From a virus (lineage: Duplodnaviria; Heunggongvirae; Uroviricota; Caudoviricetes), in IMG/VR virus record IMGVR_UViG_2703718814_000005, positions 8,034 to 72,033 of that record: a DNA stretch of 64,000 nt. The stretch is one strand, 5' to 3'. Below, in pieces: positions 45,001-51,000 of this stretch (positions are counted from its first letter, which is position 1; the number at the start of each line of letters is the position of its first letter). Made by a program: the position numbers.

Positions 45001-48000
45001 AAACTCACTGAAGCTGAGAGCTTCTTCGCCTTCGGCAAGGCCTTCGAAGTATTCTTCGTAAGCCTTTTCCATGATTGTGTCGAAATCCATATCACTCACC
45101 TGAGTTTCTTTCCAGCCAGCGACGGGCACCATTTTCGGTTTTAAACGTTTTGCTTTTGGTATACGTCATCGCGGTGAACGTACCGTCCTAGTTGGGGAAT
45201 ACGCCACATACCAGAGATTCGTTGTTGCCAAGATCGATAGTATCCATGCTGACCTCATTTCCCCTTAACGCCGGGGTAGCGGAACTGTTTGCTGAGAACA
45301 CCGTGCGGTGTCTTGATGGAGGTAATTTAGTTTTCTCATTGTTTTTCGTCAAGGTTTTTTGATGAGAAAACTCAAGTATTGGCGCAAGATAAAGCCAATA
45401 CATTGAAATGTAAGGCTTTAAAATTTTGTGAAGGGATGATTATTGATGCTTGTTGCGTTTGCGAGCCTCTAATAGCTCGGTGAACAGGCGATTAAAATTC
45501 TCAACGCGGGCGCGGAGTTCGCTGAGTTGTGCTTGTTGCTCTGATTTAGGAAGTGCGCGATACAAACGCAGCATCTCTAACTCATCTTCCGATAAGTCTA
45601 AGGCACTATCGAGTGAAACAGGGGGAGCTGGTGTTTTGTCCTCGTCGCCAAACAGTATCCAGGTTGGTGAACATTGCAATACCTCGGCGAGGCGATGCAA
45701 ATTTTGCCCGCGCGGGGCTGTATGGTCACTTTCCCATAATGAAATTGATGAGCCAGATACGCCAGCAGCTTTGCTTAAACCGTTTTGACTTAAGCCTACC
45801 TGCTTACGTCTTTCTCTAATGCGTTGACCTAAAGTTTTCTCGTTCATATTTAGATATCTTAATAACCCTTGGCTTGAGATTCCTTGAGTGATTAGCATTG
45901 AGAAAACTCAATATTGGAGGTGCGATGTTTAAATCAGACGTAATTAATTTTTACGGTACGAAAGCCAAAGTAGCGAAAGCTGCTGGCGTTGACCCATCTG
46001 CTGTTTCTCAATGGCAAGAGCTGGTTCCTGAAGGTCGCGCGATGCGTCTACAGGAGGCATCTGGCGGCGAGCTTCAGTATGATCCCAAGGTTTATGACGA
46101 ATATCGTAAGACGAAGCGGGCGGGGCGGTTGAACAATGAAAATCACTCCTGAACAGGCTCGTGAGGCTCTGGATGCCTGGATATGTCGACCAGGAATGAC
46201 ACAGGAGCAGGCGACGATATTAATCACTGAAGCATTCTGGGCTTTGAAAGAGCGCCCGAACATCGATGTTCAGCGTGTCACAGATGAAGGTGGCGCGGTT
46301 GATCAGCGAGCGCTTGGCGTTAATCGAGTGAAGATATTCGAACGCTGGAAGGCTATCGACACCAGGGATAAGCGTGAAAAGTTCACGGCGCTAGTGCCTG
46401 CAATTATGGAGGCTATCCGGATTAATGATTTCAGGTTGTATCGTGAAATTAGTGACGGAAAAAGCATCACGTACATGATCGCCGGGTTAAACAAAGAATA
46501 TGGCGATGTGGTGGAGTCCGGACTGCTTTTTGCTGATCCTGCCGTAGTGGATCGTGAAACTGACGAACTTATAGAAAAAGCAATTGCTTTCAAACTTGCG
46601 TATCGACAGCAATACCAACAAAAAGCTGGATGGAATTATGAGCCTTCTTTTTGCTGAACGCCCACTGGTTATAAACACACAGCTTGCGATGAAGATTGGC
46701 TTAAATGAAGCCATTGTGTTGCAGCAGTTGCATTACTGGTTGAGAGATACCAATTCCGGTATGGAATGTGATGGTGTTCGCTGGATTTACAACACAACGG
46801 AACAATGGCTGGAACAGTTCCCATTCTGGTCAGAGTCAACGTTAAAGCGCGCGTTTGCAAGTCTGAAAACGCTGGGGCTTTTGCGTTGTGAAAAGCTCAA
46901 TAAATCAAAGCGCGATATGACCAATTTCTACACGATCAACTACGGGAGCGAGCTTTTAGATGATGGCAAATTGAGCGAATCCATCGGTTCAAAATGCGCC
47001 GCTCCATCAGGTCAAAATGACACGATGGAAGAGGTCAAAATGAAACGCTCCATTGGTTCAAAACGATCCAATGTCATCGGGTCAAAATGGCCTGATGATC
47101 TTACAGAGAATACAACAGAGATTACTACAGAGAATAAAAACACTTTTCGTCCGGAAGCTTCGCAACCGGACCCGCAGACGACTGAACAGGATTTTTTAAC
47201 CCGGAACTCCGACGCGGTTGTGTTTAGTGCGAAAAAACGCCAGTGGGGTAGCAGGGAGGATTTGGCGTGTGCGCAGTGGATCTGGGGGCGGATCGTGGGC
47301 CTCTACGAACAGGCAGCCAGTGATGATGGCGAGATCATGAGACCAAAAGAGCCTAACTGGACTGTCTGGGCCAATGACGTGCGCACAATGCGGATGCTGG
47401 ATGGCAGAAGCCACAGACAAATTTGCGAAATGTTTGGTCGGGTTCAGCGAGATCCATTCTGGGTAAAAAACATCATGAGCCCGTCAAAGCTCCGCGAAAA
47501 ATGGGACGAACTGGTCATCCGCCTGGGACGTTCACCTGTACAGCGTTGTGTTAATCATATTTCTGAACCGGATACAGAAATTCCGCCTGGTTTCAGAGGA
47601 TAAGTGTTGATTTCAGGTCATGAGGTAATTTTAAGGGGGACTTGTGGCAAAAGTTTTTACACAAGAAGAGCGGGAAAAAATTAAAGGGCAGGTGGTGGAA
47701 CTCGTGCGCCAGAGCGGTCGTGAGACGTTACGGCAACTGGAAGCTAAAACAGGTGCGACTAGATATCTGATGAGCGTTCTTGCCAGAGAGCTGGTAGCCA
47801 GTGGCGATGTATACAACTCCGGCTACGGGTTATTCCCGTCTGAACAGGCGCGTAAGGACTGGCAAAACGCCCGCAAAAAACTCTCGAGGGCAAAGGTGAA
47901 GAAACCTGCTGTGGTTGATCCGGACCTTATCTGGTCATTACCTGACGGAGAAATACGCCGCTACGACAGTCGTCTAAACATAATCTGTCGCGAGTGCCGG

Positions 48001-51000
48001 AAGAGCGAAGTTATGCAGCGTGTTCTGACGTTTTATCAGGGGAATTATCGGGAGGTGATGCTGTGAGTACATCGGCTACCATTCTCGACATGTGCTGTGG
48101 CAGTCGCATGCTCTGGTTCGATAAGAATGACGAATGGTCGATATTTAGCGATATCAGGAAAGAGGAACATTCGCTATGTGATGGACGTCACCCGATTATT
48201 AATCCCGACATTATCGCTGATTTTCGTGCGCTGCCGTGGTTGTCTGCTTTGCATCAAAAGCAGACATTACCAGATTTAGACATCTGTTTCCGATAGCCCG
48301 TTCTGATGCTACACTTTTTGCTATTTTCATGAACCTCATAAACACATTTATGACTGTTGCTGATTTCAAACGCCCCAAATTGGAGCTCCCAAACGGGGCA
48401 AAAAAACTATTACTGCACTCTTGCTGTGCTCCATGTTCCGGTGAAGTGATGGAGGCGCTTCAGGCCTCGGGAATCGACTACACCATCTTTTTCTACAACC
48501 CGAACATTCATCCTCAGAAAGAGTATTTAATTCGTAAGGATGAGAATATTCGCTTTGCTAAACAACACGGCGTGCCATTTATTGATGCTGATTACGACAC
48601 AGACAACTGGTTTGAGCGAGCCAAAGGAATGGAATGGGAGCCTGAACGAGGGATCCGTTGTACCATGTGTTTTGACATGCGTTTTGAGCGGACTGCACTG
48701 TATGCCGCTGAAAATGGTTTCAGTGTGATCAGTAGCTCACTGGGCATTTCACGCTGGAAAAATATGCAGCAGGTTAACGACTGTGGACGGCGAGCCGTCG
48801 CGCATTATCCGGGCATGGTGTACTGGGATTATAACTGGCGAAAACAGGGCGGCTCTTCCCGCATGATTGAAATCAGCAAGCGCGAACAATTCTATCAGCA
48901 GGAATATTGTGGCTGCGTGTATTCACTGCGCGATACCAATCTACACCGCAAATCTCAGGGACGCCCTCTAATCAAAATTGGTCAACTGCACTACGGTAAG
49001 GAAGGACAGGAATGATTTTATATTATGCCAACGGAGCGTAGCAGTGTTTCTATATATAGTACGCCTACCTTAATTTTCAAATAATCATGATTAATGAGCA
49101 GGTCATCAGTGCAAGCAATGACCTGCTCATCTTGTTGAAATTAGAGGAAATCTTGCAGCCATGATATGGCTTAAAATAACGTTTGATTATTTTACCTGCT
49201 GTTTGTCCCTGGTTTAAAGTCGGTTGTCTGATTTGATTACGCGCAACTGACGCTTACGTATTGAAGTAACGAGCACGAAGACACATATTTATCAGTGCCT
49301 GTATACGTCAAGAGCAGGAGATTTATGTGCTGGTTCTCAAATGCACGCTGGCTATTGTGGCTGTAATGGCAATTTATTGTCTTGTTATTGTTCTTATGGA
49401 TCACCTTTCTGATTGATTTCATATTGGCGAGGTAACGGTAGTTAAGTAGAATGGCTGCGGGTGCTTGAGGCTATCTGCCTCGGGCATGAACACCAACGGC
49501 AGATAGAGAAAAGCCCCAGTTAACATTACGCGTCCTGCAAGACGCTTAACATTAATCTGAGGCCAATTTCATGCTAGACACATGTAGGTTAGCCTCTTAC
49601 GTGCCGAAAGGCAAGGAGAAGCAGGCTATGAAGCAGCAAAAGGCGATGTTAATCGCCCTGATCGTCATCTGTTTAACCGTCATAGTGACGGCACTGGTAA
49701 CGAGGAAAGACCTCTGCGAGGTACGAATCCGAACCGGCCAGACGGAGGTCGCTGTCTTCACAGCTTACGAACCTGAGGAGTAAGAGACCCGGCGAGGGAG
49801 AAATCCCTCGCCACCTCTGATGTGGCAGGCATCCTCAACGCACCCGCACTTAACCCGCTTCGGCGGGTTTTTGTTTTTATTTTCAACGCGTTTGAAGTTC
49901 TGGACGGTGCCGGAATAGAATCAAAAATACTTAAGTAGCGCGCAGGGATAAGAGGGATGGTCCCTTAAAGGGGAGAGCTAATTATCCGGAAGGATTCTGA
50001 TGATGAACATCGAAGAACTGCGTAAAATTTTTTGTGAAGATGGCCTCTATGCTGTGTGCGTTGAAAATGGAAACATTGTTAGTCATTACCGCATTCTGTG
50101 TTTGCGAAAGAATGGGGCTGCGTTAATTAATTTTGTGGATGCTCGGGTCACGGACGGATTTATCTTGCGCGAAGGTGAGTTTGTCACTTCATTACAGGCA
50201 CTGAAAGAGATCGGAATAAAAGCAGGCTTTTCAGCTTTTGCAGAAGAATAAACTCATCTACAATCTTGCGCGGGGCTGAACTCCCGCTGAGTAACACCGT
50301 GCCACCGGAGAAAACCGATGGCACGCAACGTAAAATATTACAATTCTGATAATTCGCCCGTTCTTGTCTGCACGCACGAGCGGTATTCTCACGCATTCAA
50401 GTCTGAATGGTTCCAACACCCTCCATGCACTGAAGAGCAGGCTGAATGGATAATTCAGTGTTACCGCAGGCGCGGATACGAGGTTAAGAAAGCCCTTAGC
50501 CTCGACTACCGTCACTGGATAATCTCAGTCAGATTGCCTTACTCCGAACGCCCACCACGTGCGTCCCGCACTTTCCAGCAACGGATCTGGAGGTAACGTG
50601 CGGGTATTACTTAGACCTGTTCTGGTGCCTGAGCTTGGGCTGGTGGTCCTTAAGCCGGGCCGTGAATCCATACAGATATTTCATAATCCTCGAGTGCTGG
50701 TGGAACCGGAACCAAAAAGCATGCGTAATCTGCCATCCGGAGTCGTTCCTGCCGTTCGCCAGCCGCTGGCGGAAGACAAAACATTGCTGCCGTTTTTTAG
50801 TAACGAACGGGTGATTCGTGCTGCTGGCGGCGTTGGCGCATTGTCTGACTGGCTATTACGTCATGTTACATCCTGCCAGTGGCCTAATGGCGATTACCAT
50901 CACTCTGAAACAGTCATTCACCGTTATGGTACCGGCGCAATGGTGTTGTGTTGGCACTGCGACAACCAACTGCGTGACCAGACATCGGAATCACTGGATC

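Follow-up and report, generated by a model that had tools for sequence, protein, structure and literature searches.

A stretch of 64,000 nucleotides (nt) from IMG/VR virus record IMGVR_UViG_2703718814_000005 (positions 8,034 to 72,033 of that record; called the window here, with all coordinates in its own numbering unless another locus is named) contains a lambdoid prophage that adjoins rspB, which is the Qin site. In the early-right arm of this prophage we identified a gene of the QueH family of epoxyqueuosine reductases, within an interval (47644-49130) that had been flagged by an earlier note made from the sequence without database searches. We consider it probable (about 0.75) that the Qin-site prophage carries, as cargo, a functional queH gene whose product would act on host tRNA as a vitamin B12-independent reductase converting epoxyqueuosine (oQ) to queuosine (Q). 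The gene is as follows.

48350-49015, plus strand: queH, epoxyqueuosine reductase QueH, 221 amino acids (aa); assigned from PF02677, structure 7LC5, conserved cysteines, the ratio of nonsynonymous to synonymous substitution rates (dN/dS), and the RefSeq name

The prophage gene encodes a canonical QueH protein

The earlier note had placed this gene in the QueH (DUF208) family from two cysteine motifs, and a profile search bore this out. The protein matches the Pfam QueH family (PF02677) with 220.2 bits against a gathering score of 23.5 (E = 2.7e-65), over profile positions 1 to 174 of 175. It also matches the solved QueH of Thermotoga maritima (7LC5/7LC7/9DEU; E = 5.4e-22), with query residues 20 to 196 aligned to chain residues 4 to 178. 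The two proteins share the full-length domain, the CC, RC..C, and YCGC motifs, and a single-domain architecture of about 200 to 220 aa. They are only about 35% identical, and the prophage protein differs in having a Cys instead of Asp13, in having short extensions at both termini outside the Pfam domain, and in being prophage encoded in a genome that bears QueG. RefSeq names the prophage proteins WP_001595803.1 and WP_021568046.1 "epoxyqueuosine reductase QueH." An NCBIfam scan matched no model to QueH, to the DUF977 protein, or to the methyltransferase stub described below, which is uninformative, as Pfam covers them.

We examined the cysteines in an alignment of 86 sequences, consisting of the query, T. 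maritima QueH, and 84 length-filtered sequences out of 150 representatives; the latter were the best 150 representatives of clusters at 50% identity from an exhaustive HMMER search with 4,763 matches at E values up to 0.001. Query Cys25, Cys26, Cys104, Cys107, Cys187, and Cys189 align with T. maritima Cys9, Cys10, Cys87, Cys90, Cys169, and Cys171, and each of these six columns is conserved in 81 to 97% of the 86 aligned sequences. Query Cys29, in the CCAPC motif, aligns with T. maritima Asp13; at this position, 71 of the 76 representatives have Cys, and only T. maritima has Asp. CCAPC is the majority form of the family, and T. maritima is the exception. Mutants of QueH at two of these positions, C9S (9D86) and D13N (9DCO), have been deposited in the PDB, so these positions are considered mechanistically important. 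The prophage protein keeps all seven family-conserved cysteines (Cys25, Cys26, Cys29, Cys104, Cys107, Cys187, and Cys189), every one in alignment; a DUF208 match and a full set of ligand residues are both present.

The open reading frame (ORF) that ends at 49015 contains HSCCAPCSG near its N terminus and EYCGCVYS near its C terminus, as had been read from the sequence, but the start first proposed for it, 48329, is probably seven codons too early. There are three in-frame start candidates: GTG 48236, ATG 48329 (also the start in the annotation of phage HannyBb), and ATG 48350 (the RefSeq start). ATG 48329 reads ATT in the Rac-type allele, the context CATTTATGAC at 48350 is invariant, and the protein that starts at 48350 is covered in full (100%) by the 221-aa orthologue of Erwinia. 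Because the upstream ATG is not conserved and the allele comparison, the RefSeq start, and the length of the Erwinia orthologue agree, the true start of queH is most likely ATG 48350, and we set aside ATG 48329 and GTG 48236.

Selection on the gene was assessed with four prophage alleles, those of the window, REL606, O157:H7 Z1504, and the Rac-type prophage of GF50. Synonymous changes among these alleles number up to 47, versus 1 to 10 nonsynonymous changes. Because dN/dS is 0.03 to 0.06 at dS values of up to 0.46, queH has been under strong purifying selection during its residence in diverged prophages.

queH is cargo of lambdoid prophages

We found queH DNA in 995 of 5,426 complete Escherichia coli genomes (it is absent from about 82%), and in 983 of the 995 matching genomes the match spans at least 80% of the query sequence. 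Most copies are one allele, WP_000150294.1, about 93% identical to that of the window. Seven contexts were inspected, and in all of them queH belongs to a lambdoid prophage or phage, where it comes immediately after a DUF977 gene and mostly just before hokD. The isolated phage HannyBb (PP925841.1) carries it at 33011-33697, annotated as "hypothetical protein," beside a methyltransferase stub that is annotated as a DNA methyltransferase despite its truncation. When 50,697 phage records were searched with tblastn, carriage was convincing in HannyBb only. The other matches, to unannotated fecal metagenome fragments or to oversized "phage" records that probably contain bacterial DNA, were not used as evidence of carriage. 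PHROG 3217, labeled "unknown function," matches the queH product with an E value of 5e-136.

The gene order of the window agrees with the setting given in the earlier note, a prophage in which queH stands between the replication genes and the Q gene:

39448-40743, minus strand: integrase, a prophage gene

41087-43558, minus strand: exonuclease, a prophage gene

45440-45898, minus strand: cI-like repressor, followed by a cro-like gene

46136-46657: YdaT/cII-like gene

46584-47603: O-like replication initiator, followed by the flagged genes

Rightwards of the flagged genes: hokD with the sok RNA, then rem, then a DUF968/HNH gene (50559-51647)

51631-52413: Q antiterminator

E. coli S19-651 is 99.99% identical to the window across 31600-60147. 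Four complete genomes match the 1.6-kb queH locus at 100% identity, and E. coli B REL606, E. coli C, and ATCC 8739 match it at 99.4%.

The interval from the DUF977 gene to hokD/DUF968 is a cargo hot spot of Qin/Rac-like prophages. In O157 Z1504 (locus L004, 7899-9909), the slot holds a Dcm-type methyltransferase and an NgoMIV-family restriction enzyme beside QueH; in Ecol_224 (locus L009, 527-3102), it holds a SMEK-domain protein and a class I methyltransferase; and in phage PhiR42_1 (locus L003, 4464-4820), a longer methyltransferase. In BL21 (locus L008, NZ_CP060121.1, 3206-3630), a deletion runs from within the DUF977 gene to window position 49301, so that a shortened DUF977 gene is joined to position 49302 and the methyltransferase stub and queH are gone, while REL606 retains both. 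REL606 and BL21 therefore form a natural queH-plus/queH-minus pair of B strains.

queH arrived as a discrete module, probably from an enterobacterial chromosome

Pairwise comparisons located the borders of the inserted segment, and two features lie at its left end:

48230-48235: left junction of the QueH module, from pairwise blastn of window 47000-50500

48238-48263, plus strand: perfect 10-bp inverted repeat, TGTCTGCTTT-GCATCA-AAAGCAGACA, at the junction; fold z = -2.7

Homology to PhiR42_1, which lacks QueH, stops at 48229, within the methyltransferase gene, and the stretch homologous to the O157-type QueH module opens at 48235. The right borders are at 49021 for the O157-type module and at 49428 for the Rac-type module. 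These positions indicate that QueH came as a module of about 0.8 to 1.2 kb that truncated a methyltransferase gene. The module is present in one and absent from another of otherwise collinear phage genomes, a polymorphism that is one criterion of a moron. We considered the junction hairpin (48238-48263) as a terminator or recombination site and dropped it because its stem is not kept in the O157-type allele; the repeat is probably incidental.

The closest proteins outside E. coli, at 80 to 87% aa identity, are named QueH in Erwinia, Providencia, Proteus, Photorhabdus, and Gibbsiella. Identity to the chromosomal housekeeping QueH proteins of Erwinia and Providencia is about 86%. Their genes lie in core chromosomal neighborhoods (purL-queH-glrK-glrR-glnB and tmcA-queH...purC), in contrast to the mobile lambdoid cargo described here. 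The Erwinia gene resembles the prophage gene in encoding 221 aa and in having TGCTACACT upstream (31 nt from its ATG versus 34 nt in the prophage). The GC content of queH, 48%, equals that of the surrounding prophage. Capture of a housekeeping queH from another enterobacterium would be the simplest history. In this scenario, queH was picked up from an enterobacterial chromosome along with a short 5' region and would have landed in the variable slot between the DUF977 gene and hokD, destroying the methyltransferase gene in this lineage.

Candidate expression signals of queH

Two elements flank the gene:

48307-48315, plus strand: TGCTACACT, a promoter-like motif of the extended -10 type, 34 nt before the start codon of queH

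49094-49130: 13-bp stem-loop downstream of queH, -22 kcal/mol, z = -3.6

The upstream 9-mer has the TGn-extended -10 form, and its core, TGCTACAC, is identical in three prophage contexts; in one of these, the Rac-type context, the region homologous to the window extends only about 5 nt beyond the motif on its upstream side. The full 9-mer, which occurs once in the 64-kb window, also precedes the chromosomal queH of Erwinia, where general DNA similarity begins just 12 nt before the ATG. Because a motif of the TGCTACACT type is kept both in prophage contexts and upstream of the Erwinia gene, we infer that queH may have brought its own promoter and could be expressed in the lysogen. Upon induction, it would be transcribed with the early-right operon.

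A stem-loop had been noted downstream of queH with an 11-bp stem; it is present, with 13 pairs rather than 11. None of 200 shuffled sequences folded equally well. The Rac-type module has kept most of the stem-loop; a deletion has removed it from the O157-type module. The element may be a (bidirectional) terminator, although its U-tract is weak. On the minus strand this hairpin has a more T-rich tail, and a minus-strand promoter-like site (49189-49218; TTTAAA-18-TAAAAT) faces it; an antisense or small RNA of about 90 nt could lie between queH and the small ORF described below.

With its discrete variable module, candidate promoter, and downstream hairpin, queH is like the morons and auxiliary metabolic genes of the lambdoid nin-like region. 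It differs from them in that promoter and terminator functions are candidates only, neither site passing simple consensus scans, and in that the cargo is a tRNA modification enzyme, a class not found in the viruses surveyed by Hutinet et al. in 2019 (PMC6884629).

QueH beside a universal QueG

The conversion of oQ34 to Q34 in tRNA is carried out by both QueG and QueH (PMC5372724), and the same reaction is predicted for the prophage protein. QueG, which is cobalamin and [4Fe-4S] dependent, belongs to a nonhomologous family and needs a cobamide (PMC11841063, PMC6461909), and its gene is a core gene of E. coli. It is one of the cobamide-dependent enzymes of E. coli (PMC11841063), and QueH is the cobamide-independent alternative (PMC6461909) that substitutes for QueG in other bacteria (PMC5372724). 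That E. coli normally uses QueG, as the earlier note had stated, agrees with our survey: queG was found in 5,426 of 5,426 genomes (at least 95% identity and at least 80% coverage), and it is intact in REL606 beside QueH. The pattern by which the family was discovered, QueH replacing QueG where QueG is absent, is thus not seen in E. coli, which is a matter of context and not a property of the protein. E. coli lacks de novo cobalamin synthesis. Since the cobamide required by QueG is not made de novo in E. coli, a lysogen would gain a B12-independent route to Q-tRNA. In the mechanism that we propose, the canonical iron-sulfur QueH would convert oQ34 to Q34 in tRNA-Asp, tRNA-Asn, tRNA-His, and tRNA-Tyr without cobalamin, and the lysogen would in this way complete its Q-tRNA; phage-infected cells would gain likewise if queH is read from the early-right operon.

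Several observations weigh against a functional queH that is expressed on its own and benefits its host. With queG universal, QueH may give no measurable phenotype while B12 is available, and queH was lost from BL21 by deletion without obvious harm. A strict sigma-70 scan found no plus-strand promoter upstream of queH, no recognizable Shine-Dalgarno sequence was read before ATG 48350, and the Rac-type allele has TGCTACACA at the promoter-like motif, in which the last T of the -10 hexamer is lost (TACACA versus TACACT). The downstream stem-loop lacks a proper T-run and was not called by a simple terminator scan. A literature search found no experiment on this prophage allele.

One alternative is that QueH is active but a redundant passenger, which confers no selective benefit given QueG and persists by hitchhiking on successful prophage modules. 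The presence of queG in every genome, the absence of QueH from most of them, its deletion in BL21, and the highly mosaic slot are all consistent with this explanation. Against it, the low dN/dS at dS values of up to 0.46 shows that the coding sequence has been under strong constraint in diverged prophage lineages, and in nearly all matching genomes (983 of 995) the match spans 80% or more of the query sequence. We regard a mere passenger as unlikely.

A role in conflict, whether by changing the modification state of the anticodon loop so as to evade or trigger tRNA-targeting toxins or defenses or through a different substrate, draws on the company that QueH keeps, since the slot elsewhere holds the Dcm plus NgoMIV-type restriction-modification pair, the SMEK-domain protein, and methyltransferases, and it adjoins hok/sok. 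PADLOC has no defense model that matches QueH or its neighbors (DUF977, the small ORF, Rem, and DUF968), except for the dead methyltransferase, and QueH is a near-orthologue of the housekeeping protein with no extra domain. We accordingly dropped the reading of the locus as a defense system and consider a conflict-related role very improbable.

Least probable of all, and in our view very unlikely, is that QueH serves modification of phage DNA (a 7-deazaguanine or epoxy-type base, as antirestriction) instead of tRNA, even though preQ0-derived bases are known in phage DNA (PMC6884629) and the same slot in related prophages holds DNA methyltransferases and a restriction-modification pair. The locus shares with the phage 7-deazaguanine clusters (DpdA with FolE/QueC/QueD/QueE, as in phage 9g) only the broad field of 7-deazaguanine metabolism. 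No DpdA/TGT-like transglycosylase and no FolE, QueC, QueD, or QueE is annotated in the prophage region, in its annotated twins, or in positions 1 to 39,882 of the 45,272 bp of HannyBb, an absence that rests on review of annotations and not on a hidden Markov model scan of every ORF. In the phage systems known to Hutinet et al., the pathway ends at preQ0, preQ1, or G+ derivatives, and QueA, QueG, and QueH are all missing (PMC6884629); oQ formation requires QueA on tRNA (PMC5372724), and QueH acts after QueA; and the prophage protein shares 86% identity with a chromosomal QueH of the housekeeping kind. Of the two roles suggested in the earlier note, tRNA queuosine metabolism is supported, whereas nucleic acid or phage DNA modification is without support because no DpdA, TGT, or preQ0 genes are annotated along with queH in the regions reviewed.

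Neighboring genes and other features of the window

Two features lie between the replication initiator and queH:

47644-48066, plus strand: DUF977/LygF ("Ren-like") gene, 140 aa; conserved left neighbor of the cargo slot

48063-48296, plus strand: truncated phage DNA methyltransferase (pseudogene); homology over about 48063-48248, stop codon at 48294-48296

The 140-aa ORF that had been seen upstream of queH is present and is the DUF977 protein. It matches PF06163 (E = 4.7e-29; 101.6 bits against a gathering score of 22.1; profile positions 1 to 133 of 134) and PHROG 142, "Ren-like exclusion protein" (E = 7e-47), and its homologues in related prophages and phages are named DUF977 or LygF.

The second ORF, that with ILDMCCGSRMLWF, opens at GTG 48063, overlapping the DUF977 stop codon, and its last codons up to the stop come from the inserted QueH module. 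The earlier note had taken ILDMCCGSRMLWF for a remnant of S-adenosylmethionine (SAM)-methyltransferase motif I, and this reading held up. The ORF matches PHROG 954 (DNA methyltransferase) at positions 50 to 108 of 229 (E = 1.4e-24), PHROG 11564 at positions 3 to 61 of 117, and PADLOC MTase_II at positions 3 to 64 of 169. The SAM-binding motif I region is present, as stub residues 3 to 61 match the N-terminal part of these three models, and the catalytic domain is incomplete, with about 60 of 153 to 229 profile positions covered. By tblastn, homology to intact phage methyltransferases ends at residues 59 to 62. A Pfam scan of the stub gave no match, and RefSeq labels it a pseudogene, "methyltransferase, incomplete, missing C-terminus." Judged from these partial matches, the ORF is a genuine methyltransferase remnant, a dead 5' stub of about 60 codons.

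To the right of queH lies a complete type I toxin-antitoxin locus:

49459-49783, plus strand: hok/sok locus, complete; Rfam sok RF01794 at 49459-49633, 115 bits

49571-49783, plus strand: mok

49628-49783, plus strand: hokD

Near this locus are a promoter-like site (49424-49452) and a terminator-like hairpin (49852-49869). Between queH and hok/sok, an unannotated hydrophobic ORF of 29 aa (49327-49416, plus strand; MLVLKCTLAIVAVMAIYCLVIVLMDHLSD) has a GTG start that is preceded, 6 nt upstream, by an AGGAG Shine-Dalgarno sequence. The ORF belongs to no Pfam or NCBIfam family. Its differences from the Rac-type prophage of GF50 are chiefly synonymous, which suggests a real small membrane peptide, and it accompanies the hokD module even where QueH is lacking (Ecol_224 and BL21). 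It may be a type I toxin-like gene.

Farther to the right, the large terminase gene of the prophage (gpA ATPase domain) is interrupted at 60147 (region 59150-61545 onwards), where the identity with S19-651 also stops. Another integrative element begins there; it encodes a P4-type integrase that includes an Arm-DNA-binding domain (60307-61545), as well as a Bro-N protein (61822-62403). Because the terminase gene is cut and the P4-type integrase begins at this point, the QueH prophage in this strain is probably defective or host to a nested satellite-like element. A very long ORF on the plus strand (16171-24591; 2,806 aa) lies in the chromosomal DNA of the window, upstream of ynfEF-rspAB.

Implications

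As a protein, the prophage QueH is a canonical member of a characterized family and is already named QueH by RefSeq in about 1,000 E. coli genomes. The underappreciated aspect is QueH as phage cargo. PHROG 3217 and the HannyBb record leave the gene unnamed, literature searches for QueH/DUF208 with prophage, phage, or lysogen found no paper on phage-borne QueH, and none of QueA, QueG, and QueH was reported for the viruses analyzed in the 2019 survey (PMC6884629). QueH deserves a place among the listed phage auxiliary genes.

The practical value of the finding is greater than its conceptual value. REL606, E. coli C, ATCC 8739, and many pathogenic lineages have a second, B12-independent oQ reductase gene, as predicted here; K-12 is not known to carry queH. 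Since E. coli strains differ in a second oQ reductase, experiments with ΔqueG mutants or B12 limitation could be strain dependent. The same difference provides a simple natural setting in which to ask whether oQ and Q are functionally distinct.

More tentatively, we propose that prophage queH is a lysogenic conversion gene that uncouples the completion of queuosine from the supply of cobalamin, an idea that we consider possible but that we hold with less than even confidence. If it is true, about one-fifth of E. coli strains (B, C, ATCC 8739, many extraintestinal pathogenic E. coli, and O157/Shiga toxin-producing E. coli) would complete Q-tRNA in B12-poor niches where other strains would stall at epoxyqueuosine. 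This could affect the decoding of NAU/NAC codons, stress and virulence phenotypes, and the reading of ΔqueG or B12 experiments, and QueH would be the first tRNA queuosine maturation enzyme recognized as phage cargo.

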